The notes beneath the pieces were generated by a model, which made no database searches, was not told the origin of the DNA, and saw only the letters and a list, made by a program, of their open reading frames with translations. Shown piece by piece: positions 858 through 63,297 of a stretch of 64,000 nucleotides of DNA (position 1 is its first letter; every line of letters begins with the position of its first letter). The stretch is from an uncultured Bacilli bacterium (lineage in GTDB: Bacteria > Bacillota_I > Bacilli_A > RF39 > UBA660): positions 11,880 to 75,879 of the forward strand of contig CAKOIS010000002.1 of the NCBI GenBank assembly GCA_934087065.1, written 5' to 3'. A program made the translations under genes and the position numbers.

Positions 858-2711
858 ATGAATATAAAAGAAATAAAGAATGATAAATTTTTAAAGAAAA
901 TGAATGAAAGAGAGTTAACTCTTTTAGCGAGTGATATAAGAGAGTTTTTAATTAGTAACATATCTAAAACAGGTGGACATTTATCAAGTAATTTAGGTGT
1001 AGTAGAACTTACTATTATGTTACATAAAGTGTTTAATTTTAATAAAGATAAGCTTATATTTGATGTTTCTCACCAAAGTTATGTACACAAGATACTTTCT
1101 GGACGTGCTCTAAAGTTTGACACATTAAGAAAATTTAATGGCTTAAGTGGCTTTCAAAAAATATCTGAAGGAGACTCTTATGAAGCAGGACACTCTGGTA
1201 CAAGTTTAAGTGCAGGGCTAGGGCTTGCTTTATCAAGAGATATGAATAAAGAAAAATATAACGTAATTAGCGTTATAGGAGACGCATCTATTTCAAATGG
1301 ACTATGTTATGAAGCACTAAACCATATAGGTGAAGTTAAAACAAAATATATAATAATCTTAAATGATAATGAAATGAGTATAAATAAAAACGTAGGTGCA
1401 CTACATAACCACTTAGATAATATAAGAAGTAACAAACATTATGAAAGCACTAAAGATAAAACTAAAGGAGTGTTAAATAAAATTCCATTAATAGGTAAAC
1501 CACTAGTTAGAATCATTAAAAATGTTAAACTAAGTATTAAAAAACTTTACTTAAAAGAAGGTTTTATATTTGAAGAACTTGGGTTAGACTACTATGGGCC
1601 AATTAATGGACATGATTTTAACGAATTAGAAATGTACTTAAAAAGAGCTAAAGAAAGCACACATTCTGTTTTGCTTCACGTTATAACTGAAAAAGGAAAA
1701 GGGTATATTTATTCAGAAAAAGATACAACTGGTAAATGGCATGGAGTAGGACCTTTCAATAAAGAAACTGGTGTAATACTCTCTAGTGACACTAACCCAA
1801 CATGGAGTGAAGTAATATCAAATAACTTAATTAGACTTATGAAAAAGAATATTGTTGTAATAACTCCAGCAATGGAAAGTGGAAGTAAATTAACTAAATT
1901 TAAAAGTATGTTTCCTAAAAACTTTATAGATGTCGGTATAGCTGAAGAACACGCTTTAGTACTTGCTAATGCAATGAGTTTAAATAAGATAATTCCTTTT
2001 GTAAGTATATACTCAAGTTTCTTACAAAGAGGATACGACGAAGTATTACACGATATTGCTAGAATGAACTCTCACGTAATAATTGGAGTAGACAGATGTG
2101 GTTTAGTAGGACCTGATGGGTCAACACATCAAGGAGTGTTTGATGTAACATTCTTACTTCCTATCCCTAATCTTATTATAAGTGTACCAAAAGACTCAGT
2201 TGAAAGTGCGAATTTACTTAATACTGCTATTAAAACTAATAGTCCATTTGTAATAAGATACTCTAAAAAAAGAATAGAGTATAAAGAAGAAAAAATAACT
2301 AGTATACAAGTAGGTTCTTGGGAAAAAATAACTGATGGGTTAGATGCTACACTTATAACTTATGGAGACTTTGTAAATGAAAGTATTAGTGTTATTGATA
2401 AACTAAAAAGTGATGGGTACAACGTTTCTTTAGTAAACGCTAGATTCTTAAAACCAATAGACTTTCAAATGTTTAATGAAATAACTAAGAAAAATAAGCC
2501 TATATTTGTATATGAAGAAAGTATGCAAATAGGTAGTCTCGGGAGTTACTTAAGTAGTATAACTGATAAAGAAATAATTACTTATGCTATAAAAGATGAG
2601 TTTGTAAACGAAGGAACTAGAGAAGAATTACTAGAGTACTTAGGACTTGACACAGATACAATTTATAATAAAATGAAAGAGGTGATTACTAGTGCTAGAG
2701 TACGAAAATAA
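858..2711 (+). CDS. dxs: 1-deoxy-D-xylulose-5-phosphate synthase
   Basis: 617 aa. TPP-binding GDG/IGDASISNGLCYEALNH region and GHSGTSLSAGLG motif. RBS ggcaggtg upstream. Confidence 0.9.
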   Translation: MNIKEIKNDKFLKKMNERELTLLASDIREFLISNISKTGGHLSSNLGVVELTIMLHKVFNFNKDKLIFDVSHQSYVHKILSGRALKFDTLRKFNGLSGFQKISEGDSYEAGHSGTSLSAGLGLALSRDMNKEKYNVISVIGDASISNGLCYEALNHIGEVKTKYIIILNDNEMSINKNVGALHNHLDNIRSNKHYESTKDKTKGVLNKIPLIGKPLVRIIKNVKLSIKKLYLKEGFIFEELGLDYYGPINGHDFNELEMYLKRAKESTHSVLLHVITEKGKGYIYSEKDTTGKWHGVGPFNKETGVILSSDTNPTWSEVISNNLIRLMKKNIVVITPAMESGSKLTKFKSMFPKNFIDVGIAEEHALVLANAMSLNKIIPFVSIYSSFLQRGYDEVLHDIARMNSHVIIGVDRCGLVGPDGSTHQGVFDVTFLLPIPNLIISVPKDSVESANLLNTAIKTNSPFVIRYSKKRIEYKEEKITSIQVGSWEKITDGLDATLITYGDFVNESISVIDKLKSDGYNVSLVNARFLKPIDFQMFNEITKKNKPIFVYEESMQIGSLGSYLSSITDKEIITYAIKDEFVNEGTREELLEYLGLDTDTIYNKMKEVITSARVRK

Positions 2712-3327
2712 TCTATATAAAGAAGGCGTTACACTAGTCGCTGGTGTAGACGAAGTAGGACGTGGGCCTTTAATCGGTCCAGTAGTCGCATGTGCTTGTA
2801 TTCTTCCTGTAAACTTTTACCATAAAGACATCAAAGACAGTAAAAAGCTAAGTGAAAAGAAAAGAGAAGAAATGTACAAAATTATAAAAGAAAATGCTTT
2901 AGCTATAGGGCTTGGCATAGTAAGTGAGAAAGTAATAGATGAAATAAACATATATGAAGCAACAAAAATAGCTATGAAAGAAGCAATAGAAAATCTGAAT
3001 ATCACTCCTGAACATATATTAATAGACGCTATGAAACTCGAATTAAATATCCCGTCAACTTCAATAATAAAAGGGGACGCTAAAAGTGAGTCAATTGCAG
3101 CTGCTAGTATAATTGCTAAAGTAACAAGAGACCATATGCTAGATGAGATGGACAAAGAGTATCCAATGTATGACTTAAAAAATAATAAAGGATATGGTAC
3201 TAAAAAACATTTAGAAGCACTACAGACTTATGGCCCATGCAAATATCACCGAGTAAGTTATTCGCCTGTAAGAAATGCATTAAATGAAAAAAACACAAAA
3301 ACAATTGAAAATAAAGTAAATGTATAG
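2692..3327 (+). CDS. rnhB: ribonuclease HII
   Basis: VAGVDEVGRGPLIGPVVACA N-terminal motif and DSKKLS. Overlaps the dxs 3' end by 20 nt. Confidence 0.9.
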   Translation: MLEYENNLYKEGVTLVAGVDEVGRGPLIGPVVACACILPVNFYHKDIKDSKKLSEKKREEMYKIIKENALAIGLGIVSEKVIDEINIYEATKIAMKEAIENLNITPEHILIDAMKLELNIPSTSIIKGDAKSESIAAASIIAKVTRDHMLDEMDKEYPMYDLKNNKGYGTKKHLEALQTYGPCKYHRVSYSPVRNALNEKNTKTIENKVNV

Positions 3328-3350
3328 TAAAATGATTATGGAGGGTAAAC

Positions 3351-4322
3351 ATGAAAGAATTTTTTAAAACAAATGGAAAAGGAATAATTATAGGTTTAGT
3401 AGTAGGTGTACTAGTAATGTATATTTTCTGGCCTAAGAGAATTGCTAAGTTAGAAAATGGAGAAGAAGTATCAATTACTGTTAAAGATCAAACTATAACA
3501 GCAGACTCACTTTACAGTGGATTAAAACTAAAATATGGTGCTAGTGAAATAGTACAACAAGTAGATAAATTAATACTTGATAAGAAGTACGAATTAACAG
3601 AAAGTGATTTAGAAGAAATCAATAAATCAAAAGAAAATTACTATTCAACATATAAAAGCTATTATGGAATAACAAAAGAACAATTTTTAAAACAAAATAA
3701 CTTTGACTCAGAAGAAGACTTTGTAGAATACTTAAAATTAGAGTATAAAAGAAACCTTTTAGTAGAAGAATACTTAAAAGCAAAAGTAACAGACGAAGAT
3801 ATTAAAGAATATTACAAAGAAAACTATTTTGCCCCATTTAAAGTGGAACACATACTAGTTAAAACTTCTTCTAGTGTTACAAAAGATGAAGCTAAAGCTA
3901 CTGCAGAAAAAATACTAAAAGCACTTAAAGGTGGAAGTTCTTGGGAAGATGTTAAAACTAAATACAAAGATGATATAACAACAGAAAACTTTACAGTAGA
4001 GTTTGACTCTAGTTTAGAAGAAAATTTTGTAAAAGCTGCTAAAAAACTAAAAGATAATAAATATACTACAAGCTTAGTAGAAACATCTTATGGTTACCAT
4101 ATTATATTAAGAACAGAAACAAAAGAAAAAGAAAGTGTTTCTGACATAAAAGATAGAGTAATAACTAAAGTTGTATCTCAAGAAAAAAACAAAGATACTA
4201 ATTATTACCAAAAGACTTTAGTAATAATGAGAAAAGAAGCTGGAATGGAAATAAAAGATACAGAACTAAAAAAAGTATACGATAATTTTGTAAGTAGTTT
4301 AGAAACAACAAAAAGTGAGTAA
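3351..4322 (+). CDS. membrane-anchored PpiC/parvulin-type peptidyl-prolyl isomerase (PrsA-like foldase)
   Basis: N-terminal TM helix. Parvulin-like core (HILVK...SYGYHII). K/E-rich, similar to PrsA family proteins. Confidence 0.6.
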   Translation: MKEFFKTNGKGIIIGLVVGVLVMYIFWPKRIAKLENGEEVSITVKDQTITADSLYSGLKLKYGASEIVQQVDKLILDKKYELTESDLEEINKSKENYYSTYKSYYGITKEQFLKQNNFDSEEDFVEYLKLEYKRNLLVEEYLKAKVTDEDIKEYYKENYFAPFKVEHILVKTSSSVTKDEAKATAEKILKALKGGSSWEDVKTKYKDDITTENFTVEFDSSLEENFVKAAKKLKDNKYTTSLVETSYGYHIILRTETKEKESVSDIKDRVITKVVSQEKNKDTNYYQKTLVIMRKEAGMEIKDTELKKVYDNFVSSLETTKSE

Positions 4323-4815: not shown

Positions 4816-7308
4816 ATGAAGAATAAAAAAGGAATGATATATGGAGTACTATTAATGACTTGTTTAGTAATAGGTTTATCTTATGGAGCATTTATATTTA
4901 GTACAGATAAATATAGAAGTAGTGAATTATTAATAAGTAAGTTAAACTATAGTATAGATATACAAGAAGACGGAAGTAATAAGTCTACAATTAATGGAAG
5001 TTCAGTAACAGTACCAGCTAGTACTAAAGTATATTTAAATATTACTTTAACAAGTGTAAATGAAATAGATAGTAAATATACTTTAGCATATAAAACTAGC
5101 ACAAACGCTAAAGTAGAGTACTCAGATAGAACACCATGGAACACACAAGGAGTAATAAAAGGAATAGACAGTAACACTTATTCAAAAAAGATAAGAGTAG
5201 TAATAGATAACACAAATATCTCAACACCATCTACAGTAAACTTTCAAGTATATGGTGGATACTCATTTAACTCATATGCAAATATAGAACTAACTGATGG
5301 ATATGTATCAGTAAGTGGACCATACACAGAAGTTGCAACAAACATAGGAAATAGACTAGTAGATATAATAGAAAGTGATACAAGTTGTTTAACAAGTAAT
5401 TCTAACACTTGCTTGTATGGTGGAGAGAACATTAAAAACTATGTACAATACCCAGAAGACAATGACAAAACAAAGAACTTATGGAGAATAATAGGAAGTT
5501 ATCAAATAGAAGATCAAACACTACCAAAACTAATAAGTCAAAGTACAAGTAGTACTAGTACTTCAACACTAACAACAGACTTAACAAGTTTCTATAACAC
5601 ATTAGAAGATAAAGAAGTATTAGTACAACAAACAAATAAATTTAATTGTTTTACTAATACTTGTGTAGAAAGCACTTACAACAATATTGGCTTACTAACA
5701 GACTATGAATATAATCAAATAGGTGGAGTAAACTCATACTTAGCAACTACAGAAAAATATTACATAAATAGTTCTAGCGGAATAAAAGAAGTAACATCAA
5801 GTGGGATAACAAACCCAAGTAATACAAGTGGACTAAAACCAACAATATACTTACAAACTGGAGTACAAGTAACAGGAAGTGGAACAGTGAGTGACCCATA
5901 CATCATAAGTCCAGCAAGTGATATAAATTTAGTTGCTTATACATTAAATGGACAAGCAACAGATAAAAATTATGCAGATTTACTTAAAACAAATGTAGTA
6001 GATAAAGTAACATGTAAAAACGGAACAACAGCAACATGGGACAATACAGATTTTTCAATAAAATTAAAGAATATACATACACCAGACTATTGTACAATTG
6101 ATTTTGGAGATGGATACAGTGTTAGTTTAACAGCAACAAATGGTACAGTAAGTCCATCAAATATAACTGTAGGATATAATGGAAGTGCAAGTTTTACTGT
6201 AACACCTAACAGTGGATATAAACTAGAACTTGAAACAAACACATGTGGCGGAACACTATCAGGAAGTACATATACAATAAGTAATGTAACAAGTGCAAAA
6301 AGTTGTAGTATAACATTCAAGTCTTCTACACAAACATTATATGCTAAACTGCTTGCTGATAAATCAACAGTATTAACAAGAACAGACTTTAGTAAAGTTT
6401 TAACAAATGACAATACAAACACATTATATACAGGAACAGAGAATGGAACAACAGTATATTATTTTGCAGGGAATGCAACAGATAATTGGGTAAAGTTTGG
6501 AAAGAATGCAACTAATCAAGACTTATACTGGAGAATAATAAGAACAAACTCAGATGGTGGAGTAAGACTACTATACCATGGAACAAGTACTACAGCAACA
6601 GATGCGGTTATAAACACAAGTACAGCATTTAATACAACATATAATAACCCAATGTATGTAGGATATATGTATGGAACAAGCGGTTCATTAGTAAATAATA
6701 GAACAAATACAAATAATAGTACAATAAAAGGAATAATAGATACATGGTATGAAAATAATCTAAAAACTAACTATACAAAATACTTAAGTACAACAGCAGT
6801 ATATTGCAATGATAGAAGTAACCCAGCAGGTGGATATAACACTGGAGGTACAACATTCTACTATGGTGGATATACACGATTAATAACAAATAAAACACCA
6901 ACATATGACTGTACAGACACTAACGATAAATTCACAGTAGACACAAGTACAGGAAACGGGAAACTAACATACCCAATAGCATTAATGACAGCAGACGAAG
7001 TAAGTTTTGCAGGTGGACTAGCGGGAACAAACGCACCAACATGGTATTATTATAATAGTGCAAAGGGTAGCTCAACAGGTGACACCAGGTGGTGGCTGTT
7101 GTCTCCTTACTATTGGAGTAGCGGCCACGCTTACGTGTTTCGCGTGTACGGTTCGTCCTACCCTGGCCGCTTGAACTACAACAACGTCAACTACACCGCT
7201 CTTGGTGTTCGTCCGGCAGTTTCTCTCAAATCTTGTATCAAGACAAGTGGAGGAGATGGCTCGGCAAACGCACCATACACAATAGAAGAAAGTACAAGTG
7301 GGTGCTAA
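4816..7308 (+). CDS. secreted/surface protein, paralog 1 (830 aa). N-terminal signal anchor and S/T-rich linker. The C-terminal half is homologous to paralogs 2-4 and ends in an adenine-depleted hypervariable domain (WWLLSP...GVRPAVSLKSC)
   Basis: RBS gaggagg. The C-terminal ~330 aa align with ORFs 23406, 34050 and 45303. Terminal CLec/DUF1566-like pattern (YW..S...AY.V.F.V.G....GVRP). Confidence 0.8.
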   Translation: MKNKKGMIYGVLLMTCLVIGLSYGAFIFSTDKYRSSELLISKLNYSIDIQEDGSNKSTINGSSVTVPASTKVYLNITLTSVNEIDSKYTLAYKTSTNAKVEYSDRTPWNTQGVIKGIDSNTYSKKIRVVIDNTNISTPSTVNFQVYGGYSFNSYANIELTDGYVSVSGPYTEVATNIGNRLVDIIESDTSCLTSNSNTCLYGGENIKNYVQYPEDNDKTKNLWRIIGSYQIEDQTLPKLISQSTSSTSTSTLTTDLTSFYNTLEDKEVLVQQTNKFNCFTNTCVESTYNNIGLLTDYEYNQIGGVNSYLATTEKYYINSSSGIKEVTSSGITNPSNTSGLKPTIYLQTGVQVTGSGTVSDPYIISPASDINLVAYTLNGQATDKNYADLLKTNVVDKVTCKNGTTATWDNTDFSIKLKNIHTPDYCTIDFGDGYSVSLTATNGTVSPSNITVGYNGSASFTVTPNSGYKLELETNTCGGTLSGSTYTISNVTSAKSCSITFKSSTQTLYAKLLADKSTVLTRTDFSKVLTNDNTNTLYTGTENGTTVYYFAGNATDNWVKFGKNATNQDLYWRIIRTNSDGGVRLLYHGTSTTATDAVINTSTAFNTTYNNPMYVGYMYGTSGSLVNNRTNTNNSTIKGIIDTWYENNLKTNYTKYLSTTAVYCNDRSNPAGGYNTGGTTFYYGGYTRLITNKTPTYDCTDTNDKFTVDTSTGNGKLTYPIALMTADEVSFAGGLAGTNAPTWYYYNSAKGSSTGDTRWWLLSPYYWSSGHAYVFRVYGSSYPGRLNYNNVNYTALGVRPAVSLKSCIKTSGGDGSANAPYTIEESTSGC
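7090..7227 (+). other. putative DGR variable region (VR) of paralog 1
   Basis: A-depleted, GC-rich stretch in an AT-rich gene. The codons that vary against paralogs 2-4 are NNC (tac, cac, cgc, aac, acc). Conserved scaffold codons lack A. A conserved 3' boundary (gtttctctcaaatcttgtgtcaagacaag) contains a small inverted repeat. Confidence 0.55.
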
Positions 7309-7492: not shown

Positions 7493-8845
7493 CTAAAACT
7501 CTACTGTTTCTACATTGCTTTGTATTTGATTATTTATTTGTTGTACTTGCTGTGTTACTTGTGGAGTAGGTTGCTGCTGTGGTGTTTCTTTTATACTGTG
7601 GGCTTTTTGTGCCATCTTTAGGTTTGCAACTAAGTTATCGTCTTTGTAAGCTGTCATATCATTTTCTAAGTCAACTATCTTTAGTATTTCTTCAAATGAT
7701 GTTTCTCCTTCAACAACTTTGTTTAACCCATCTTGTAATAGTGTAACAACTTCTCCAGTATAAACTAAATCTCTTAGAACGTGTTTAGGAGCATTATTAG
7801 TAATTGCGTCTTTTATTTTTTCATTCATTACTAGTACTTCTAGTATTGCAAGTCTTCCTCTATAACCATGGTTACATCTAGGACAGCCTTCTTTATTTGC
7901 AACATACATTTCATTTATATCTTTTCCTATAACTGTTTTAAATACTTGTTTTTCATATTCTGTAGTTTGTCTTTTAATCATACAGTTAGGACATAATTTT
8001 CTAGCAAGTCTTTGACTTATTATTCCTTCAAGTGAGCTACCAAGTAAGTATCTTTCTACATCCATATCAGTAAGTCTTTCAATAGTATTAAGTGAGTTAT
8101 TAGTGTGTAGTGTACTAAGAACTAAGTGTCCAGTAATTGAAGCACGTACGGCAATTCTAGCTGTTTCATCATCACGAATTTCTCCGATCATTATTATATT
8201 AGGGTCTTGTCTTAAAATACTTCTTAAAATAGTAGCAAATGTAAGACCAATTTCAGTTTGAGTTTGAACTTGGTTAATACCAGCAATATCCATTTCAACT
8301 GGGTCTTCAACTGTTATGATGTTAACTTCTTCAGTATTAAGCTTTTGAAGAATAGAGTACAAAGTAGTACTTTTACCAGTTCCAGTAGCACCAGTAACTA
8401 AGATAATTCCATTAGGTATTCTAATTAATTTATTAATCTTTTCCATCGCGTCTTTACTAAAGCCTAAGTTATCAAGTCCAGCTAAACTCATAGAGTAGTC
8501 TAGAATTCTTATAACTATTTTTTCTGCATTATTTGTAGGTAGTGTACTTACACGCAAATCAAGTAGTCTATCTCCAATTTTACTCTTAATCGCACCATCT
8601 TGAGGAAGACGCGTTTCCATTATATTCATACCGGCTATCATTTTGATACGACTTATCATATTTCTTTTATATTTACTAGGGACTATACTGTAATCACTTA
8701 ATATACCATCAATTCTAAAACGAATTTTCAAAGAGTCTTTAGATGGGTCAAAGTGAATATCACTTGCGCCCTTATTAACTGCGTCTATTATAATTTCATT
8801 TGCTATTTCAACAATAGGTAATTTTTCAAAATTAAATTCTTTCAT
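7493..8845 (-). CDS. pilB: type IV pilus assembly ATPase (PilB/GspE family)
   Basis: Walker A GATGTGKSTT. GspE-type Asp/His boxes. Tetracysteine C-x-x-C...C-x-x-C motif. 450 aa. Confidence 0.85.
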   Translation of the reverse strand: MKEFNFEKLPIVEIANEIIIDAVNKGASDIHFDPSKDSLKIRFRIDGILSDYSIVPSKYKRNMISRIKMIAGMNIMETRLPQDGAIKSKIGDRLLDLRVSTLPTNNAEKIVIRILDYSMSLAGLDNLGFSKDAMEKINKLIRIPNGIILVTGATGTGKSTTLYSILQKLNTEEVNIITVEDPVEMDIAGINQVQTQTEIGLTFATILRSILRQDPNIIMIGEIRDDETARIAVRASITGHLVLSTLHTNNSLNTIERLTDMDVERYLLGSSLEGIISQRLARKLCPNCMIKRQTTEYEKQVFKTVIGKDINEMYVANKEGCPRCNHGYRGRLAILEVLVMNEKIKDAITNNAPKHVLRDLVYTGEVVTLLQDGLNKVVEGETSFEEILKIVDLENDMTAYKDDNLVANLKMAQKAHSIKETPQQQPTPQVTQQVQQINNQIQSNVETVEF

Positions 8846-9091: not shown

Positions 9092-9454
9092 ATGAAAAAT
9101 AAAGGTTTTACTTTAGTTGAAGTAATTGCAGTTATTGCTTTAATTGCAGCTTTGGTTTTACTAGTAGTCCCAAAACTAGCAGACATGGATACGAAAAGCA
9201 AAGAAAAGATGTATAATGCAAAAGTGACGGAAATTTTATCAGGTGCTTATAAGTATGGAACAGATAATATTGATAACTTAACAAATGAATGCTTAGATGT
9301 AACAGTTGGTACTTTACTAAAACTAGGATATGTTAAATCAGATGATAATTCTGGTTTCTATGTGACTAATCCTAAAAATAATGAGTCAATGAATAACTTA
9401 ATTATATGTGTTAAATATGAAAATGGGAAAGTAGTAACTAATGTTAGTAATTGA
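9092..9454 (+). CDS. type IV prepilin-like protein (class III signal, KGFTLVEV)
   Basis: N-terminus MKNKGFTLVEVIAVIALIA has a G-F-T-L-x-E prepilin peptidase site followed by a hydrophobic helix. 120 aa. Confidence 0.75.
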   Translation: MKNKGFTLVEVIAVIALIAALVLLVVPKLADMDTKSKEKMYNAKVTEILSGAYKYGTDNIDNLTNECLDVTVGTLLKLGYVKSDDNSGFYVTNPKNNESMNNLIICVKYENGKVVTNVSN

Positions 9455-23209: not shown

Positions 23210-23405
23210 AAAATGATAAGATTATCTTGTAATAAAGATAGGAAGTGAAGCACATGGAAGTTAATTCTTTAGTACAAAACAAAGTACAAATTGGGGGGGG
23301 GTTATTTAAATAGTATAAATAACTATAGTTTTTCATGTGCAATTATATGGATAGAATAAGTCTACCCATTTTTTCGTGTCTTAAAAAGAAAGGAGTGCAT
23401 TAAAT
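23205..23405 (+). promoter_or_regulatory. conserved leader, copy 2: palindrome gataagattatc, uORF from ATG 23255, G10 tract 23293-23302, hairpin plus T-run about 23346-23372
   Basis: Homologous to the leaders at 4360, 33855 and 45105. Confidence 0.6.
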
Positions 23406-24905
23406 ATGCAAAGGAAACAATTAACACTTGTAATAGTAAGCTTACTAGTAGTAGTACTAAGTGTATCACTTGCTTACTTTACAGCACAAATAATAGGAAA
23501 GGGAAAAGATGTAAGTGTAACAAGCGCAAACCTACAAATAGTATTTACAGATAGTGATGGAGCTTTAACAGAAACTGATATAGAACCTGGCTGGACTAAA
23601 ACTAAAACATTTACTATTAAAAATGATACTAAGATAGAATACAAATATAATATAGTAATAAAAGACTTATTAAATACTTTTGTAACTAATGGATACTTAA
23701 AGTACAAGATAACTAGTACAAATAATGGATATAATATGACTGAGTTTAAAGATATTCCAAAGTCTAGTGCACCTAAAGATACAATATTAGCTTATAGTGT
23801 AGTAATACCTAATGGAGTAACACAAAGTTATACAATTGAATTTAAGTATGCAAACGATGAAAGTGTAGACCAAAGTGATGATATGGGTAAGAAACTAAGT
23901 GGAACACTATTTATAACTGAGGAAACAGAAGATCCAAACAAAACACTATATAATCAATTACTTGTAGACAAATCAAAAGTATTAACAAGAACAGACTTTA
24001 GTAAAGTTTTAATAGATAATAATACAAACACATTATATACTTCTACTGAAGATAGTAAAACAGTATATTATTTTGCAGGGAATGCAACAGATAACTGGGT
24101 AAAGTTTGGAAAGAATGCAAGTAATCAAGACTTGTACTGGAGAATAATAAGAACAAACTCAGATGGTAGTGTAAGACTTCTTTACCACGGAACAAGTACT
24201 ACAGCAACAGATGCATATATTGGTGAATCAGCATTTAATAATAGTAGTTATACTAATATAGCATATGTAAGTTATATGTACGGAAGTACAGGAAGTATAG
24301 CAAATGCTAGAACTAACCAAAAAAACTCTAGTACAATAAAAGACAAAATAGATAACTGGTATAAAATCAACTTAGAAGCAAAAGGTTATACAAAATACTT
24401 AAGTACAACAGCAGTATATTGTAATGATAGAACATATGCAGTATCTGGAGATACATACTTTGGAGCATACACAAGACTAATAACAAATAAAACACCAAGT
24501 TATGACTGTGCAACAACAGAAGACAAATTCACAGTAGACACAAGTACAGGTAACGGAAAACTAACATATCCAATAGCATTAATGACAGCAGACGAAGTAA
24601 GTTTTGCAGGTGGACGATATGGTACAAATGCACCAACATGGTATTATTATAATAGTGCAAATGGTAGTTCTACAGAATCAAATGCTTGGTGGTTGTTGTC
24701 TTCTCGCAATTGGAATGGCGGCGACGCTATTGTGTTCTTCGTGTATGGTTCGTCCGAACAACCTGGCAATTTGAGCAACAGTAGGGTTGACGGCACTTAC
24801 GGTGTGCGTCCAGCCTTATCACTAAAATCTTGTGTAAAATATGCAAGTGGAGATGGCTCAGCAAGTGACCCATACACAATAAAAGAAACTACAAATGGAT
24901 GCTAA
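23406..24905 (+). CDS. secreted/surface protein, paralog 2 (499 aa) with C-terminal A-depleted hypervariable domain
   Basis: N-terminal signal anchor MQRKQLTLVIVSLLVVVLSVSLA. First ~170 aa nearly identical to paralogs 3 and 4. C-terminus WWLLSS...GVRPALSLKSC. Confidence 0.85.
   Translation: MQRKQLTLVIVSLLVVVLSVSLAYFTAQIIGKGKDVSVTSANLQIVFTDSDGALTETDIEPGWTKTKTFTIKNDTKIEYKYNIVIKDLLNTFVTNGYLKYKITSTNNGYNMTEFKDIPKSSAPKDTILAYSVVIPNGVTQSYTIEFKYANDESVDQSDDMGKKLSGTLFITEETEDPNKTLYNQLLVDKSKVLTRTDFSKVLIDNNTNTLYTSTEDSKTVYYFAGNATDNWVKFGKNASNQDLYWRIIRTNSDGSVRLLYHGTSTTATDAYIGESAFNNSSYTNIAYVSYMYGSTGSIANARTNQKNSSTIKDKIDNWYKINLEAKGYTKYLSTTAVYCNDRTYAVSGDTYFGAYTRLITNKTPSYDCATTEDKFTVDTSTGNGKLTYPIALMTADEVSFAGGRYGTNAPTWYYYNSANGSSTESNAWWLLSSRNWNGGDAIVFFVYGSSEQPGNLSNSRVDGTYGVRPALSLKSCVKYASGDGSASDPYTIKETTNGC
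24687..24824 (+). other. putative DGR variable region (VR) of paralog 2
   Basis: A-depleted. Variable NNC/NNT codons (cgc, aat, ggc, gac, att, ttc, agc, aac, agt, gac, ggc, act, tac). One extra codon relative to copies 1 and 3. Confidence 0.5.
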
Positions 24906-33760: not shown

Positions 33761-33854
33761 TCTCATTTCGTAAAAACTTGCAAATGCAGGAAAGTTCGGA
33801 ATGAGTTTTTATAAAATATGTAAAACATGTGAAAAAAACTTGAAATATAGTGCT

Positions 33855-34049
33855 TTTTTTGATAAGATTATCTTGTAATAAAGATAGGAAGTGAAGTACA
33901 TGAAAATTAACTCTTTAGTACAAAATAAAGTACAAAATGGGGGGGGGTTATTTAACTAGCATAAATAACTATAGTTTTTCATGTGCAATTAAATGGATAG
34001 AATAAGTCTATCCATTTTTCGTGTCTTAAAAAGAAAGGAGAGCATTAAT
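33855..34049 (+). promoter_or_regulatory. conserved leader, copy 3: palindrome gataagattatc, uORF from ATG 33900, G9 tract 33939-33947, perfect 11-bp hairpin plus T-run about 33991-34026
   Basis: Homologous to the other three leaders. The hairpin aaatggataga-ataag-tctatccattt is followed by tttcgtg. Confidence 0.6.
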
Positions 34050-35531
34050 ATGCAACGAAAACAATTAACACTTGTAATAGTAAGCTTACTTGTAGTAGTA
34101 CTAAGTGTATCACTAGCTTACTTTACAGCACAAATAATAGGAAAGGGGAAAACTGTAGACGTTAGTAGTGCTAACTTACAAATAGTATTTACAGATAGTG
34201 ATGGAGCTTTAACAGAAACTGATATAGAACCAGGCTGGAGTGCAACTAAAACATTTACTATTAAAAATGATACTAAGACAGAATACAAATATAATATAGT
34301 AATAAAAGACTTATTAAATACTTTTGTAACAGAAGGATATTTACAATACAAAATAACTAGTACAAACGATGGATATAATATGACTGAGTTTAAAGATATT
34401 CCAAAGTCTAGTATAGCAACAGATACAATACTAGCTTATAGTGTAGTAATACCTAATGGAGTAACACAAAGTTACACAATTGAATTTAAGTATGCAAACG
34501 ATGAAAGTGTAGACCAAAGTGATGATATGGGTAAGAAACTAAGTGGAACATTATTTATAACTGAAGGAACAGAAGATCCAAATAAAACACTATATAATCA
34601 ATTACTTGTAGACAAATCAACAGTATTAACAAGAACAGACTTTAGTAAAGTTTTAACAGATAATAATACAAACACATTATATACTTCTACTGAAGACAGT
34701 AAAACAGTATATTATTTTGCAGGGAATGCAACAGATAACTGGGTAAAGTTTGGAAAGAATGAAAGTAATCAAGATTTATACTGGAGAATAATAAGAACAA
34801 ACTCAGATGGTGGAGTAAGACTACTATATCATGGCACAAGTACTACAGCAACAGACGCATATATAGGAATATCAAAATTTAATACAGAATATAATGATCC
34901 AATGTATGTAGGATATATGTATGGAACAAGCGGATCACTAGTAAACAACAGAACAAATATAAGTGATAGTACAATAAAAACAACACTAGATAATTGGTAT
35001 AAAGATAATTTGAATACAAATTATGGAAAATACTTAAGTACAACAGCAGTATATTGTAACGATAGAAGTACATCAAATGATACATCCTTTGGAGCATTCA
35101 CAAGACTAAAAACAAATAAAACACCAAGTTATGACTGTGCAGCAACAGAAGACAAATTCACAGTAGATAATAGTACAGGCAACGGTAAACTAACATACCC
35201 AATAGCCTTAATGACAGCAGACGAAGTAAGTTTTGCAGGTGGACTATGGGCAACAAATGCTTCTACTTGGTATTATTATAATAGTGCAAACGGAAGCTCA
35301 ACAGGCTCAAACTGGTGGTGGTTGTTGTCTCCTCGCCTTTGGATTGGCGGCTACGCTAGCGTGTTCAACGTGAACGGTTCGTCCGGCCCTGGCCGCTTGT
35401 ACTTCGACGACGTCAACAACTCTTACGGTGTGCGTCCGTCAGTTTCTCTCAAATCTTGTGTCAAGACAAGTGGTGGAGATGGCTCAGCAAGCACACCATA
35501 CACAATAGAAGAAACTTCAAGTGGATGCTAA
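34050..35531 (+). CDS. secreted/surface protein, paralog 3 (493 aa; start moved from 33993 to the conserved MQRKQ ATG)
   Basis: RBS aaaggagag plus ATG 34050 is the position conserved in paralogs 2 and 4. C-terminus WWLLSP...GVRPSVSLKSC. Confidence 0.85.
   Translation: MQRKQLTLVIVSLLVVVLSVSLAYFTAQIIGKGKTVDVSSANLQIVFTDSDGALTETDIEPGWSATKTFTIKNDTKTEYKYNIVIKDLLNTFVTEGYLQYKITSTNDGYNMTEFKDIPKSSIATDTILAYSVVIPNGVTQSYTIEFKYANDESVDQSDDMGKKLSGTLFITEGTEDPNKTLYNQLLVDKSTVLTRTDFSKVLTDNNTNTLYTSTEDSKTVYYFAGNATDNWVKFGKNESNQDLYWRIIRTNSDGGVRLLYHGTSTTATDAYIGISKFNTEYNDPMYVGYMYGTSGSLVNNRTNISDSTIKTTLDNWYKDNLNTNYGKYLSTTAVYCNDRSTSNDTSFGAFTRLKTNKTPSYDCAATEDKFTVDNSTGNGKLTYPIALMTADEVSFAGGLWATNASTWYYYNSANGSSTGSNWWWLLSPRLWIGGYASVFNVNGSSGPGRLYFDDVNNSYGVRPSVSLKSCVKTSGGDGSASTPYTIEETSSGC
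35313..35450 (+). other. putative DGR variable region (VR) of paralog 3
   Basis: 17 A in about 138 nt within an AT-rich genome. All but one A lie in NNC codons (att, tac, agc, aac, aac, tac, gac, gac, aac, aac, tac). Scaffold codons (tgg tgg ttg ttg tct cct ... ggt tcg tcc ... cct ggc cgc ttg ... ggt gtg cgt ccg) are A-free. Confidence 0.55.
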
Positions 35532-40896: not shown

Positions 40897-41004
40897 TTAT
40901 TTGTTTCTCAAGGCGTATTCACTTGAAAAACCGCTCAGAATAGGTTGTAAAAGGTTAAACCTTACCTCAATGGCGCGTCTTATTATTTAAAGGAGGTATG
41001 AAAA

Positions 41005-42455: not shown

Positions 42456-42656
42456 GTGACTAGTATGACAGACAATAATAATGATAATAATAACAATTTT
42501 AATGACTTAGAATGGGTAGTTAGTGAAGAAATAAATAAATGTGATGGTTGTTCAGGAAGTTGCTTTTTAAGAGAACTTATAGAAGAACAAAGAAAAGGAC
42601 TAATTACAGAAGAAGAAATTGTAGAAAGATTAAAGGAGTACTATGGTGAAGAATGA
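42456..42656 (+). CDS. small acidic hypothetical protein (66 aa), overlapping and possibly partnered with the downstream Fic gene
   Basis: RBS aaaggaag. N/D-rich N-terminus. CDGCSGSC motif. The stop overlaps the Fic start by 14 nt. Confidence 0.35.
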   Translation: MTSMTDNNNDNNNNFNDLEWVVSEEINKCDGCSGSCFLRELIEEQRKGLITEEEIVERLKEYYGEE

Positions 42657-43293
42657 TCCGTATGTACAAAAGAATGGTGTTTTAAAAAATAAGCTAAATA
42701 TAAAGAATGAAGAAAAACTAAAACAAGCAGAAAGTGATATAGTAATAACTAGAATACATGAGTATTTTAGTAATATGTCGTTTTCAAGAACTAAAGAGTT
42801 TTATTTAGCTTTACATAAGCACTTATTTGGAGATATTTATCCTTTTGCAGGAGAAATAAGAACTATTAATATAGAAAAACAAGAAAGAGTACTTGCTTGG
42901 GATAGTGTTAAATATATTGATTGTGATAAAATAAATACTGAACTAGACGCAACATTTGAAATACTATCTCATACAGACTTTTTAAGTTTAGATATAGAAA
43001 TGCAAAAAGACTTTTTAACCTCTTTAATAAGTGACTTATGGGGAATACATGCTTTTAGAGAAGGAAATACTAGAACAGTGCTTGTTTTCTTAAGAGGATA
43101 CTTAAATAGTTATGGAATTAATTTTAATATAAATTTCTTTAAAAATAGTAATACTTATCAATATGCAAGAGATGCTTTAGTTGCTTCATACTTTGAAAGC
43201 GATATACTAGGCATTACTAGAAATTATACTTATTTAAGAAAACTTATTGGAGATATTATAGAAGAAGATTTGGAAAGGAAAAGAAATATATGA
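42643..43293 (+). CDS. Fic/Doc-family protein (216 aa)
   Basis: HAFREGNTRTVLVFL matches the Fic core HxFx(D/E)GN(G)R, with G->T at the second glycine. Size and layout are typical of small Fic proteins. Confidence 0.55.
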   Translation: MVKNDPYVQKNGVLKNKLNIKNEEKLKQAESDIVITRIHEYFSNMSFSRTKEFYLALHKHLFGDIYPFAGEIRTINIEKQERVLAWDSVKYIDCDKINTELDATFEILSHTDFLSLDIEMQKDFLTSLISDLWGIHAFREGNTRTVLVFLRGYLNSYGINFNINFFKNSNTYQYARDALVASYFESDILGITRNYTYLRKLIGDIIEEDLERKRNI

Positions 43294-45084: not shown

Positions 45085-45104
45085 AGGTACTTGAAAAGAG
45101 TATC

Positions 45105-45302
45105 TTTTTTTGATATCATTAATTATGTAATAAAGATAGGAAGTGAAGTACATGAAAATTAACTCTTTAGTACAAAATAAAGTACAATATGGGGGGGGTT
45201 ATTTAAATAGTATAAATAACTATAGTTTTTCATGTGCAATTAAATGGATAGAATAAGTCTATCCATTTTTTCGTGTCTTAAAAAGAAAGGAGAGCATTAA
45301 AT
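45105..45302 (+). promoter_or_regulatory. conserved leader, copy 4: uORF from ATG 45152, G8 tract 45191-45198, perfect hairpin plus T-run about 45239-45272
   Basis: Homologous to the other leaders. With 8 G the uORF stays in frame through the left arm of the hairpin and stops at the TAA in its loop. Confidence 0.6.
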
Positions 45303-46931
45303 ATGCAACGAAAACAATTAACACTTGTAATAGTAAGCTTACTTGTAGTAGTACTAACTGTATCACTAGCTTACTTTACCGTACAAATAATAGGAAAGGG
45401 GAAATCTGTAGACGTAACAAGTGCTAACTTACAAATAGTATTCACAGATAGTGATGGAGCTTTAACAGAAACTGATATAGAACCTGGCTGGACTAAAACT
45501 AAAACATTTACTATTAAAAATGATACTAAGATAGAATACAAATATAATATAGTAATAAAAGACTTATTAAATACTTTTGTAACTAATGGATACTTAAAGT
45601 ACAAGATAACTAGTACAAATAATGGATATAATATGACTGAGTTTAAAGATATTCCAAAGTCTAGTGCACCTAAAGATACAATATTAGCTTATAGTGTAGT
45701 AATACCTAATGGAGTAACACAAAGTTATACAATTGAATTTAAGTATGCAAACGATGAAAGTGTAGACCAAAGTGATGATATGGGTAAGAAACTAAGTGGA
45801 ACTCTTTATATAGAGAAAGGGACTTTACCAACGTTAAGTGAGAAACTTTTTGCTGATAACCCAACAATACAAACAAGAAGTTCATTTGATGCAGTATTTA
45901 CTGAAACAAACACAGGAACTTTATATAAAGCAACAGAAAGTATAGCAGGTAGTCCTGCAAAAGATGTGTATTACTTTGCAGGAGATGCAAAGAATAACTG
46001 GGTTAATTTTGGAAAATATCAAACAGATTATGTTGTCTATAGAGGTTATTCTGAAACAGGCAGTAAATACATAGATTATTTGACAATGGATGCATGTACT
46101 AGTGCCTCAAATTATAATATTAATTGTACTGAACAAATATATTGGAATAAGGGTAATGATATATACTGGAGAATAGTAAGAACAAACTACGATGGAAGTG
46201 TAAAACTTCTATATGCGGGAAATAGCCCTGATACAACAAGTGGATACATAGGAACAAGTGCATTCAATAGCACAAATAATGATTCAATGTATGTAGGATA
46301 TAAATATGGTACAAGTGGGACTCTAGCAAATAACAGATTAAATACAAATGATAGTACAATAAAAACTTTTATAGATAACTGGTATAGTAATAACTTAACA
46401 AGTTATACAAAATATATAAGTACAGAAGCAGTATATTGTAATGACAGAAAAGCACTAAGCTATAGTATAAGTAGTTCTTTTGATTACTATGTACAAACAA
46501 GACTAGGTGCAGGAAATCCAACATATGATTGTGAAGATAGTAGTGATGCATTTTCAGGAAGTAATAGTGAAGCAAAATTAACACACCCAATAGGACTAAT
46601 GACAGCAGATGAAATAACATATGCAGGTGGTAAAGATACTACAGGCTTAACAAGTCCATATGCATGGTATTATCTAAACAGTGCTGGGGAAAGTATAACC
46701 GGAACACAATGGTGGTGGTCCTTGTCACCTCGACTCTGGAATGGTGTCATTTCGTACGTTTGGTTCGTTTTTGGTTCTTCTATTCCGGGTGCCCTTTTGA
46801 GCACCGCCGATGTGAACTTTGAGAATGGTGTTCGCCCCGCCATTTCTCTCAAATCTTGTGTCAAGACAAGTGGTGGAGATGGTTCAGCTAGTAACCCATA
46901 CACAATACAAGAAACAGCAAGTGGTTGTTAA
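45303..46931 (+). CDS. secreted/surface protein, paralog 4 (542 aa), with a more divergent C-terminal half and an A-depleted hypervariable terminal domain
   Basis: The N-terminal 170 aa are nearly identical to paralogs 2 and 3. The C-terminal domain WWWSLSP...GVRPAISLKSC is related but more diverged. Confidence 0.85.
   Translation: MQRKQLTLVIVSLLVVVLTVSLAYFTVQIIGKGKSVDVTSANLQIVFTDSDGALTETDIEPGWTKTKTFTIKNDTKIEYKYNIVIKDLLNTFVTNGYLKYKITSTNNGYNMTEFKDIPKSSAPKDTILAYSVVIPNGVTQSYTIEFKYANDESVDQSDDMGKKLSGTLYIEKGTLPTLSEKLFADNPTIQTRSSFDAVFTETNTGTLYKATESIAGSPAKDVYYFAGDAKNNWVNFGKYQTDYVVYRGYSETGSKYIDYLTMDACTSASNYNINCTEQIYWNKGNDIYWRIVRTNYDGSVKLLYAGNSPDTTSGYIGTSAFNSTNNDSMYVGYKYGTSGTLANNRLNTNDSTIKTFIDNWYSNNLTSYTKYISTEAVYCNDRKALSYSISSSFDYYVQTRLGAGNPTYDCEDSSDAFSGSNSEAKLTHPIGLMTADEITYAGGKDTTGLTSPYAWYYLNSAGESITGTQWWWSLSPRLWNGVISYVWFVFGSSIPGALLSTADVNFENGVRPAISLKSCVKTSGGDGSASNPYTIQETASGC
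46710..46850 (+). other. putative DGR-type variable region (VR) of paralog 4, a divergent class
   Basis: About 12% A. The conserved 3' boundary tttctctcaaatcttgtgtcaagacaagtggtggagatgg is shared with copies 1 and 3. Confidence 0.45.
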
Positions 46932-46958: not shown

Positions 46959-47004
46959 TGACAAAATTTCACGTAAATTTCACAAAATAATTAGCACTTA
47001 GGTA

Positions 47005-47033
47005 TTGACTTTGCTAATTATGCATAGTATAAT
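47005..47033 (+). promoter_or_regulatory. sigma-A promoter TTGACT-17-TATAAT of the hrcA operon
   Basis: Perfect -10 and a near-consensus -35 with 17-nt spacing. Confidence 0.65.
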
Positions 47034-47037
47034 ATTG

Positions 47038-47064
47038 TTAGCACTTGTAAAGAAAGAGTGCTAA
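47038..47064 (+). promoter_or_regulatory. CIRCE operator (TTAGCACTT-N9-GAGTGCTAA), the HrcA binding site
   Basis: Exact match to the CIRCE 9-N9-9 inverted repeat between the promoter and the hrcA RBS. A degenerate second half-site-like copy (ttagcactt...tttgctaa) lies at 46991-47017. Confidence 0.85.
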
Positions 47065-62412: not shown

Positions 62413-62857
62413 GAATGGTTTTGTATTTATAGAAACAATAATAGTAATTGTCTTACTTAGTGTTGGTATTGCTAGTATGTACTCTTTAATGACTAATATA
62501 ACAACTGATATAAAATCAAGAAAATACTTTGATAATATAAGTGATTTATATAAAACTAATATTATAAGAGATAATGTAAGTAAAAATTTAACTGGTACAA
62601 CATACTTAGAGATTACAAAAGATAACTGTACTTCATACATGAGTAGTACATGTTATAGTTTACTTACTGACTTAGAAGTAGAAAGAGTAGTAGTTAACTT
62701 TGCAAGTTTAGATAACATAATAAATAGTGATACAACCATCCCTAACAGTATGAATGAATACCTAAAAACAATTAATACATATAAAACAAACAAATACATA
62801 ATAGTAAACTACAAATACAATAACAAAAACTATTATGCTTCCCTAGAGGTGAAATAA
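62381..62857 (+). CDS. prepilin-type pseudopilin (likely true start GTG 62405: VNKNGFVFIETIIVIVLL)
   Basis: G-F-V-F-I-E-T class III signal. RBS gagagg before the GTG. Confidence 0.6.
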   Translation: MNLMRGITVNKNGFVFIETIIVIVLLSVGIASMYSLMTNITTDIKSRKYFDNISDLYKTNIIRDNVSKNLTGTTYLEITKDNCTSYMSSTCYSLLTDLEVERVVVNFASLDNIINSDTTIPNSMNEYLKTINTYKTNKYIIVNYKYNNKNYYASLEVK

Positions 62858-63297
62858 TGAAAAAAAATGGATTTACCTTAGTTGAACTAACTATTAGTAT
62901 TGCTCTATTATCAGTAGTAATGGTCTTCTTACTAAACTTTCTAACACTTGTTAAAAAAGAAGATGTAGGAATAGAAGAAACTACAAGCATGGAAATAGAT
63001 AAAAGTGTAATTTCTAAAACTATTAATAGTGATATCTTAAAAGAAAACTATATAAGTACTCTGTCTTGTACAGATGTGTTATGTAGTGTAACCTTAAAAA
63101 GTGGGGCTAAAAGAACTATTACTATAGACGGTAATATCGTTAAATACACCGATACTACAAACAATAAAGTACTCATGTCTAGAAAGACTAACTTATCATA
63201 CACTTTAAAAAGTACTAGCTTAACCACTATTGATAAAATAACACTTGTCACAGAAAACTCAGAATACAATATAGAAATAATATCTAGTAAAATCTAG
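62857..63297 (+). CDS. prepilin-type pseudopilin
   Basis: N-terminus MKKNGFTLVELTISIALLSVV. Start overlaps the previous stop (TAATG). Confidence 0.65.
   Translation: MKKNGFTLVELTISIALLSVVMVFLLNFLTLVKKEDVGIEETTSMEIDKSVISKTINSDILKENYISTLSCTDVLCSVTLKSGAKRTITIDGNIVKYTDTTNNKVLMSRKTNLSYTLKSTSLTTIDKITLVTENSEYNIEIISSKI

Follow-up and report, generated by a model that had tools for sequence, protein, structure and literature searches.

A probable orphan variable repeat of a second template class at the 3' end of a surface-protein gene from a gut Bacilli bacterium

Diversity-generating retroelements (DGRs), as known from BPP-1, use a reverse transcriptase (RT) together with Avd to copy the RNA of a template repeat (TR) into cDNA, misincorporating nucleotides opposite the TR adenines. 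The cDNA then replaces a variable repeat (VR), and an initiation of mutagenic homing (IMH) element at the end of the VR sets the 3' limit of the replacement. The BPP-1 IMH occupies ~34 bp at the end of the VR, begins with a G+C-rich stretch and marks the 3' limit of mutagenesis (PMC5758913, PMC3240598). Here we analyze a 64-kb window of chromosomal DNA from an uncultured Bacilli bacterium (contig CAKOIS010000002.1), in which each of four paralogous surface-protein genes terminates in an A-poor, G+C-rich block of ~135 nt. The block of the fourth gene, copy 4, is the subject of this report. On the basis of TR comparisons and its 11–12% A content, it was delimited as VR4, a homolog of DGR variable repeats with a scaffold of the template class TRx, running on the + strand from TGGTGGTCC to ATTTCTCT (46713-46849). 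We consider it rather likely that VR4 is an orphan, frozen DGR variable repeat of a second TR class, the cassette of which is absent from this genome or was lost. All positions are coordinates of the 64-kb window unless a locus is named; L numbers denote loci or strains of relatives, mostly from gut metagenomes, and P numbers homologous proteins.

The four paralogs, copies 1 (4816-7308), 2 (23406-24905), 3 (33993-35531) and 4 (45303-46931), all lie on the + strand, and each protein begins with an N-terminal hydrophobic anchor. Copy 4, delimited from the open reading frame (ORF) list and the paralog alignment, encodes a 542-aa surface protein with a C-terminal VR. The protein has no Pfam or NCBIfam match; a search with it returned 5045 homologs and placed it in a distinct, widespread subfamily, here called copy-4-like, whose members are 63–74% identical and are marked by an insertion at approximately residues 241-285. 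The window comes from an AT-rich gut bacterium (29% G+C, 40.3% A), and against this background the end of copy 4 is conspicuous. Nucleotides 46710-46850 contain 11.3% A, 24.8% C, 26.2% G and 37.6% T (51% G+C), in agreement with the ~12% A noticed in an earlier sequence-only reading, whereas the remaining coding sequence of copy 4 contains 41.7% A. Adenine occupies the third position in 2/44 codons of the block compared with 45% elsewhere in the gene, and the third-position G+C content (GC3) is 55% versus 15%. Across all 64 kb, no 120-nt stretch is poorer in A than those at the ends of copies 3 and 4.

The origin of such blocks is clearest in the sister genes. Copies 1 and 3 have all scaffold bases in common, and their differences fall on the first two nucleotides of NNC codons, the hallmark of mutagenesis at the adenines of an AAC-rich template. 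A scaffold pattern matching all four window blocks was scanned through public collections. In gut metagenomes it found 91 loci, including the predicted template GGTTCGTCCAACCCTGGCAACTTGAACAACAACAACGTCAACAACACTAACGGTGTGCGTCC, and TR1, with AAC at every variable codon, is located ~438 nt downstream of the VR in L047, L082, L087 and L107. Genome contigs yielded mostly chance matches in G+C-rich genomes and one related metagenome-assembled genome (MAG), UBA11492, with VRs only; viral contigs (IMG/VR) yielded 0 matches. Locus L107 carries a complete cassette in the order target, structured spacer, TR, MutS_I-like gene, 118-aa gene, Avd-like gene and a 371-aa RT (gene 2246-3361 of that locus). The RT of relatives belongs to PF00078 and has the motifs IGNYSSQ and YMDD. 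The 114-aa Avd-like protein fits Avd in gene position and size, and its profile scores are both below the cutoffs (bAvd PF22296, E 2.9e-6, 28 bits, cutoff 40; DivGenRetAVD, E 5.6e-7, 30 bits, cutoff 80). No Rfam family matched the cassette spacers. As a separate observation, the RT gene of L047 (1064-3, minus strand), in an otherwise complete class-1 cassette, has an in-frame TAA at site 820 in place of the Asp codon of relatives (SENMS*KQVNHL versus SEKMSDKIVNHL); this is either a pseudogene or an assembly error.

Compared with TR1, the VR of copy 3 (VR3; 35316-35482 with its boundary) differs at 19–21 adenine and 1–3/88 non-adenine positions, and that of copy 1 (VR1; 7090-7259 with its boundary) at 16/34 adenine and 4–6/88 non-adenine positions, so that the variation of both VRs counts as all but confined to the adenines of a TR taken from relatives. 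VR2 in copy 2 (24684-24860) has the class-1 scaffold in a partly decayed state, with 15 adenine and 8–15 non-adenine mismatches, and its boundary, CTTATCACTAAAATCTTGTGTAAAATATGC, is without TTTCTCT. Syntenic orthologs of copy 1, recognized by their position beside the type II secretion system (T2SS) ATPase gene and by flanks 92–96% identical, differ at 17–25/37 adenine positions and at only 4–9 non-adenine positions. This re-randomization at adenines indicates past activity of the retroelement on these genes within the species complex. Both VR1 and VR3 derive cleanly from a class-1 TR.

These pairs also bear on the possibility that the block of copy 4 has nothing to do with a retroelement and is A-poor owing to the amino-acid and codon needs of a protein domain, with identity at its 3' boundary reflecting protein constraint. 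The boundary does encode the most conserved peptide of the family, GVRPAISLKSC, and the window holds no TR or RT, as this explanation would have it. However, third-position A is depleted tenfold, sequences that lack the TR 3' end write the same peptide in different codons (ATAAGTTTGAAA, CTATCACTAAAATCA), and the homologous blocks of relatives pair with TRs from which they differ only at adenines. The TR–VR pairs effectively refute a purely coding origin, to which we assign almost no probability.

The scaffold of VR4 is not that of its sisters. Relative to the class-1 template it has 27–31/88 non-adenine mismatches, more than copies 3, 1 and 2, which bears out the earlier remark that copy 4 uses a partly different scaffold. 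Several TR classes exist, as is evident from L121, a 1.25-Mb contig with an RT 67% identical to the class-1 RT and its own TR2; the L121 VR differs from the adjacent TR2 at 0/97 non-adenine and 24/33 adenine positions. A profile query with TR-like peptides led to called ORFs that are in fact TRs, and their DNA (L122-L124) defines the class TRx. Its sequence reads TGG TGG TCT TTG TCG CCT ATG AAC TGG AAT GGC AAC AAT TCG AAC GTT TGG AAC GTT AAT GGT TCT GAC AAC CCG GGC AAC CTT AAC AAC AAC AAT GTG AAC AAT TCG AAC GGT GTT CGC CC. The conserved spacer core that precedes TRs (GGTAT-N-ATATAGGRAATRA) is found in front of TRx as well, and in L123 TRx follows a copy-4-like gene. A fourth class, TR125, came from a bovine sample.

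Against the TRx of L122, VR4 is changed at 22/34 adenine and 12/88 non-adenine positions and has one extra codon (a 3-nt indel), compared with 27–31/88 non-adenine mismatches to TR1 and 27/91 to TR2. The codons that distinguish VR4 are TRx codons: TCC TTG TC., TCG.AC GTT TGG, GTT, GGT TCT, CCG GG., CTT, GTG and GGT GTT CGC CC. Furthermore, copy-4-like genes from other species (L118, L126) contain the peculiar codons of VR4 in their nucleotide sequence, as TGG TGG TCC TTG TCR CCT and TCG.AC GTT TGG. These comparisons support the view that VR4 was written from a different TR lineage, the TRx class, than its sister genes. The earlier suggestion of a second TR class therefore holds in so far as such a class is found in the clade and fits VR4 best; it does not extend to a template at hand, since there is no TR in the window or the 10 kb on either side, and TRx is not a clean cognate.

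Two further groups of loci extend the range of templates. In L115-L117 and in proteins P0156, P0157, P0198 and P0199, a VR group of the form WWLLSP..W.G.YA.SWFV..SDSPG.L..NYVGDSN.VRPVISIKSC varies among close relatives only by NNC-accessible residues and has the boundary GTTATAAGCATAAAATCTTGT, without TTTCTCT, implying that there is a further template class whose 3' end differs. L108 (minus strand, from ~11140 downwards) has a TR, followed by a normal Sp region, that is a mosaic, with a copy-4-like 5' scaffold (TGGTGGTCCTTGTCGCCT), non-A-rich codons and a TR125-like middle, and suggests that TRs are remodelled by exchange with VRs or other TRs.

Downstream of the variable codons, the sequence-only reading had noted a stretch nearly identical in copies 4, 1 and 3, and this was readily confirmed. 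The 40-nt boundary TTTCTCTCAAATCTTGTGTCAAGACAAGTGGTGGAGATGG (46843-46882, +) matches copy 3 (35443-35482) at 40/40 and copy 1 (7220-7259) at 38/40 positions, with no match in 100 shuffles. It is the longest exact match of the 3' half of copy 4 to any paralog, the next longest being 18 nt. The description of this stretch as noncoding-like proved mistaken: it lies inside ORF 45303-46931, encodes SLKSCVKTSGGDG and precedes the stop codon (46929-46931) by ~50 nt. Its first 7 nt (TTTCTCT) are TR-templated and the other 33 nt are a target-only coding flank. The templated nucleotides belong to the 3' end of the TR–VR homology (46827-46849, +), in which the G+C-rich GGTGTTCGCCCCGCC is followed by ATTTCTCT. 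This segment (GGTGTTCGCCCCGCCATTTCTCT) matches the 3' ends of TR1b and TRx, as an IMH-like element should, and TR1, TR2, TRx and TR125 all terminate in ...GGTGTKCGYCC(N)GYCA(A)TTTCTC(T). Past this common end the two part: functional TRs run on into the Sp region (AGRGTTTRAAC or ATAGTTCAGG) and VRs into CAAATCTTGT. By analogy with BPP-1, we infer that 46827-46849, plus some of the following bases, would constitute an IMH-like element. Because this end is common to all template classes, VRs with different scaffolds end in the same sequence, and GGTGTKCGYCC..CATTTCTCT-CAAATCTTGT is a concrete IMH candidate.

In none of the flank types is a hairpin predicted. A boundary hairpin or cruciform was considered and rejected, since TR-proximal VRs do not preserve the small TCTTG-TGT-CAAGA stem and the fold z is ~0. 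No downstream G+C-rich inverted repeat was detected, and DNA folds of five flank types gave z values of -1.1 to +0.75 with no conserved stem. Such a repeat occurs in only 34% of DGRs (PMC5758913), so its absence is not decisive.

The remaining 33 nt (46850-46882, +) encode LKSCVKTSGGDG and are absent from every functional TR. They represent one of a few discrete flank types: over 104 metagenome VR instances, 46 have type A (VKTSGGDG), as copy 4 does, 20 type B (IKYSTGNG), 9 type C and 28 types without TTTCTCT. These types are spread mosaically across paralog subfamilies and species. A copy-4-like gene of another species (L126) has a type A flank with 2 differences/43 nt, and in the sister lineage L081 two paralogs have a common type D flank (38/39 nt). 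The pattern is one of concerted evolution within genomes, not of conservation of a single sequence. Recombination at the flank edge is seen in the conspecific L029, L058, L093 and L110, which are identical to the window through 46882 and then show ~13 differing sites, the last 36 nt of their tail being the copy 1 tail of the window. The C-terminal tail of copy 4 (46883-46931, +; encoding SASNPYTIQETASGC before the stop) is thus a mosaic that has been replaced by recombination in other strains, and three variants occur among the cluster members. With few flank types and recombination at their edge, the identity with copy 3 needs no special function. Where copies 3 and 4 encode the same amino acids, codon identity is 63% in the gene body and 12/13 in the boundary; this codon-run statistic is only moderately significant, and our case does not rest on it.

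Exchange among the paralogs is equally visible at the other end of the gene. A 5' region of copy 4 (45104-45800, +), made up of ~200 nt before the ATG and the first ~500 nt of the gene, is homogenized with copies 2 and 3 at 90–100% identity (counterparts at 23228-23915 and 33822-34549). Between copies 2 and 4, ~320 nt of the 5' end lie in windows of 100% identity, and at 45800 identity falls suddenly to ~40%. Beyond this point the sliding identity profile of copy 4 against copies 2 and 3 stays at 40–80%, so that the greater divergence of its C-terminal half, as originally reported, is real. Upstream identity of 50–65% also disposes of the idea that gene conversion of the whole 3' end, leaving upstream identity high, accounts for the shared boundary. 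As for selection on a homing or recognition element, which had been proposed for the boundary as a whole, the proposal is supported in part: 46827-46849, including the first 7 nt of the boundary, ends all TR classes and may be such an element, and the remaining 33 nt are explicable by coding and recombination. Within the 57-nt island 46826-46882, the first ~23 nt are retroelement-templated and, by this analogy with IMH, probably functional. For the identity of the remainder, the best explanation is that paralogs have exchanged short tracts of their most conserved coding segment, with a possible contribution from IMH-type selection on the VR continuation common to all TR-proximal VRs.

Given this traffic, VR4 might be a class-1 VR that decayed in place after DGR targeting was lost, its boundary being restored later by gene conversion from copy 3 or 1. 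Gene conversion is evident in the 5' 700 nt and the tail mosaic; a class-1 paralog, L085, carries GGTGTTCGCCCGGCCATTTCTCTCAAATCTTGTGTCAAGACAAGTGGTGGAGATGG, one nucleotide from copy 4 over 57 nt; and the paralog upstream of hrcA in L081 has a class-1-like, decaying VR. Nevertheless, VR4 is nearer to TRx than to TR1 in non-adenine positions, its scaffold codons recur in copy-4-like genes of other species, and drift in a genome with 45% third-position A should have raised the count above 2/44. The L081 gene, moreover, has no subfamily insertion and so is no true ortholog of the copy 4 C-terminal half. Decay of a class-1 VR, already disfavored on these grounds, seems to us improbable. A specific version, in which VR4 was a fossil class-1 VR and the L081 gene its intermediate, was withdrawn, since copy 4 belongs to a separate subfamily and TRx fits better.

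An origin of VR4 from the TRx class leaves the question of its present activity. No TR was found in the window by a sensitive self-BLAST of all four VRs, and no RT or cassette by a six-frame YxDD scan, tblastn with the cassette proteins and the spacer-core pattern. The 10 kb beyond each window end contain housekeeping genes only, with no TR, RVT_1 gene or spacer core. VR4 is identical in L001, L002, L029, L058, L093 and L110, the flanks of which are 96–99.98% identical, except for one substitution at 46732, and across 7 strains it shows 0 adenine-position differences, and thus no hypervariability. At the protein level, residues 470-526 are invariant in 13/14 aligned cluster members, and a single member has G496S and G526D. 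The syntenic copy-1 orthologs, with their 17–25/37 adenine differences, are the positive control with which this stasis contrasts. Nor are the differences of VR4 confined to template adenines, given 12/88 non-adenine mismatches and a 3-nt indel to the best TR (TRx, L122); the maximum of non-adenine mismatches in accepted DGR targets is 11 (PMC5758913).

Loss of the cassette has precedents among relatives. In L126 (1820-2080 of that locus) a copy-4-like gene and the conserved VR-to-TR spacer are kept, the TR, accessory genes and RT are gone, and ffh comes next. A loss of another kind is seen in L077/L086/L106, L079/L111, L102 and L122-L124, where the spacer and the 5' part of a TR run into a 3' part of VR type and the coding tail of a target, without accessory genes or RT behind; examples are L123:432-777 and L122:99-430, the latter locus leading straight into polA. 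The TR of L123/L124 keeps a flank 33/34 identical to the VR4 boundary. From their arrangement, these fusions look like products of RT-cassette deletion by recombination between a TR and a downstream VR. MAG UBA11492 has 3 VRs and no TR. We favor the orphan reading of VR4 because VR4 is static, no TR, RT or spacer core is nearby and cassette loss is common in the clade. It lacks three marks of an active target (a cognate TR, an RT at hand and hypervariability) and bears a fourth, the IMH-like boundary, and we accordingly file it as a DGR-derived orphan or static VR.

Several considerations weigh against this assignment. Approximately 84 kb of genome was inspected, and DGR targets can be >100 kb from the RT (PMC5758913). 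The TRx that was found is no cognate of VR4, comes from a relative with polA only 79% identical, and VR4's own template was not seen in the loci found. The metagenome pattern (GGTTCKTCY...) cannot match TRx (GGTTCTGAC), which has GAC where TCY is required; it found TR1 and copies of VR4 and would detect a TR true to the VR4 scaffold, but not a TR that keeps GAC. VR1 is likewise unchanged in strains ~99.6% identical, so that the invariance of VR4 over short divergence is weak evidence, and strains are unusually alike in the C-terminal half of copy 4 (99.6%), so that the comparison samples little evolutionary time at this locus. Finally, the IMH role of 46827-46849 is by analogy only.

Some of these points would suit a VR4 that is still a live target, served in trans through its IMH-like boundary by a TRx-type template and RT elsewhere in the genome, with diversification rare or strongly counter-selected. 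The segment 46827-46849 is intact and has the same sequence as in VRs that lie close to a TR and evidently function; remote targets of this kind are known (PMC5758913); the window also contains VR1 and VR3, which are almost clean products of class 1; the metagenome pattern is blind to TRx; and the block is far from compositional equilibrium, and so was recently written in evolutionary terms. On the other side stand the absence of adenine-position differences in 7 strains and 14 cluster members, when copy-1 orthologs are fully re-randomized at similar flank divergence; the absence of a TR, RT or spacer in ~84 kb; the frequency of cassette deletion in the clade; and a search of 5.8 billion proteins in which no ORF joined a TRx-like peptide to the VKTSGGDG tail. 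On balance we regard a live target as unlikely.

Taken together, the comparisons lead us to propose that a DGR mechanism of the BPP-1 type underlies the variation of the window's gene family. RT and Avd would copy the TR, and the cDNA would overwrite the VR up to the IMH-like end. Copy 4 received its VR from the TRx lineage, whose T- or C-ending, A-free scaffold codons it has kept. The cognate TR and cassette would then be absent or have been lost in this genome, as shown for relatives, leaving VR4 presumably frozen, yet far from compositional equilibrium; the strong disequilibrium means that its writing is fairly recent in evolutionary terms. Flank types are swapped among paralogs by short-tract recombination, and copy 4 has a converted 5' third and a strain-variable tail as well.

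More tentatively, and as a proposal that we hold doubtful, the DGR may here be a recombining network rather than a fixed TR–VR pair, in which TR classes with one IMH-like end are interchangeably serviced by related RTs, new classes arise by TR–VR exchange, for which the mosaic TR of L108 would be an example, and TR-by-VR recombination excises the RT cassette and strands orphan VRs and TRs. If so, the copy 4 block is the trace of a second template that has since been lost from a genome still holding class-1 targets. Targets from different template classes with the same homing boundary can coexist in one genome, and an A-poor, G+C-rich island at the 3' end of a gene in an AT-rich genome is a DGR footprint even without a nearby template or RT. 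In annotations, copy 4 should appear as a variable protein of DGR type whose VR is inactive or an orphan, and not as a live hypervariable locus. The more interesting leads lie in the relatives, with their multiple classes under one boundary, mosaic TRs and TR–VR deletion products; they are natural material on template diversification, cassette loss by TR-by-VR deletion and the VR-end nucleotides kept across classes.

The surroundings of the paralogs provide further observations. The gene content of the window includes polA, gyrB/gyrA-like genes, the L21 operon and hrcA-grpE-dnaK-dnaJ, and a Hadza gut-metagenome contig is 99.3% identical to the window across 21.6 kb. A hairpin with an 11-bp stem followed by a T-run (45242-45268) lies just 5' of the copy 4 ATG. 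Near the paralogs are a T2SSE-type ATPase gene (7493-8845, -) and small N_methyl pilin-like genes (9092-9454, 62857-63297). A true prepilin signal, KKGFTLIEIIVV, opens some homologs of the VR proteins (proteins P0154, P0197), and in L115 T2SSF and prepilin peptidase genes are directly upstream; the VR proteins may be pseudopilus-associated adhesins. Downstream of copy 4, a perfect CIRCE operator, TTAGCACTT-N9-GAGTGCTAA (47038-47064), and an imperfect second copy (46991-47017) precede hrcA-grpE-dnaK-dnaJ, both overlapping a near-consensus promoter, TTGACT-17-TATAAT (47005-47033). An L21 leader (RF00559, 37.9 bits; 40919-40990) is followed by rplU, a Prp peptidase gene and rpmA, and a Fic-domain gene (42643-43293) lies between the L21 operon and a gene for an asparaginyl/aspartyl-type class II tRNA synthetase.

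Compared with the BPP-1 DGR (mtd VR, IMH/IMH*, avd-TR-brt), the system has the same TR–VR differences at TR adenines, mostly in AAC codons, the same fixed 3' limit, at which a G+C-rich stretch and a conserved segment precede TR–VR divergence, and, in relatives, an Avd-like gene and an RT with the (I/L)GxxxSQ motif (PMC3240598, PMC5758913). Unlike BPP-1, it lacks a downstream G+C-rich hairpin or cruciform that carries a GRNA loop (fold z ~0), is chromosomal rather than phage-borne, in line with 0 matches in the IMG/VR scan, and has several paralogous remote targets. Copy 4 in particular has no cognate TR at hand and non-adenine mismatches far beyond those of accepted active VRs, and the TR of TRx loci has retained the same flank as the VR. 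DUF6273 or C-type-lectin-like targets, such as the gut-phage 'tentaclins', offer a second comparison: DUF6273 is reported to be C-lectin-like and DGR-diversified (PMC10743442), copy 1 and a target of a relative have sub-threshold DUF6273 matches over the VR, and several TR-like peptides have precomputed PF19789 matches, whereas copy 4 has no Pfam match and the models made here gave no C-lectin match.

Closer parallels are found among cellular DGRs. Those of the Treponema denticola type (TvpA family, Lineage-4-like) likewise combine one chromosomal retroelement family with dispersed paralogous surface-protein targets that have C-terminal VRs, and show indels in multiples of 3 and some non-adenine differences (PMC5758913). 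They differ in that here the paralogs of one genome carry VRs of two template classes, and that cassettes are often deleted in this clade, leaving orphan VRs. Like the MutS-like (MSL)-containing cassettes of architecture D of Wu et al. 2018, for example the Legionella DGR, relatives encode a small MutS_I-like protein and an Avd-like protein between TR and RT (PMC5758913). In contrast to those cassettes, an extra 118-aa gene separates the MSL gene from the Avd-like gene in L107, L042, L059 and L084, and the host is an AT-rich gut lineage of Bacillota/'Tenericutes' with the cassette in relatives and none in the window. The DGR is thus a system of known kind, and the copy 4 block is a decaying member of it: a cellular, multi-target, MSL+Avd-type DGR, the same in kind as the Treponema and Legionella systems, with a BPP-1-like working.

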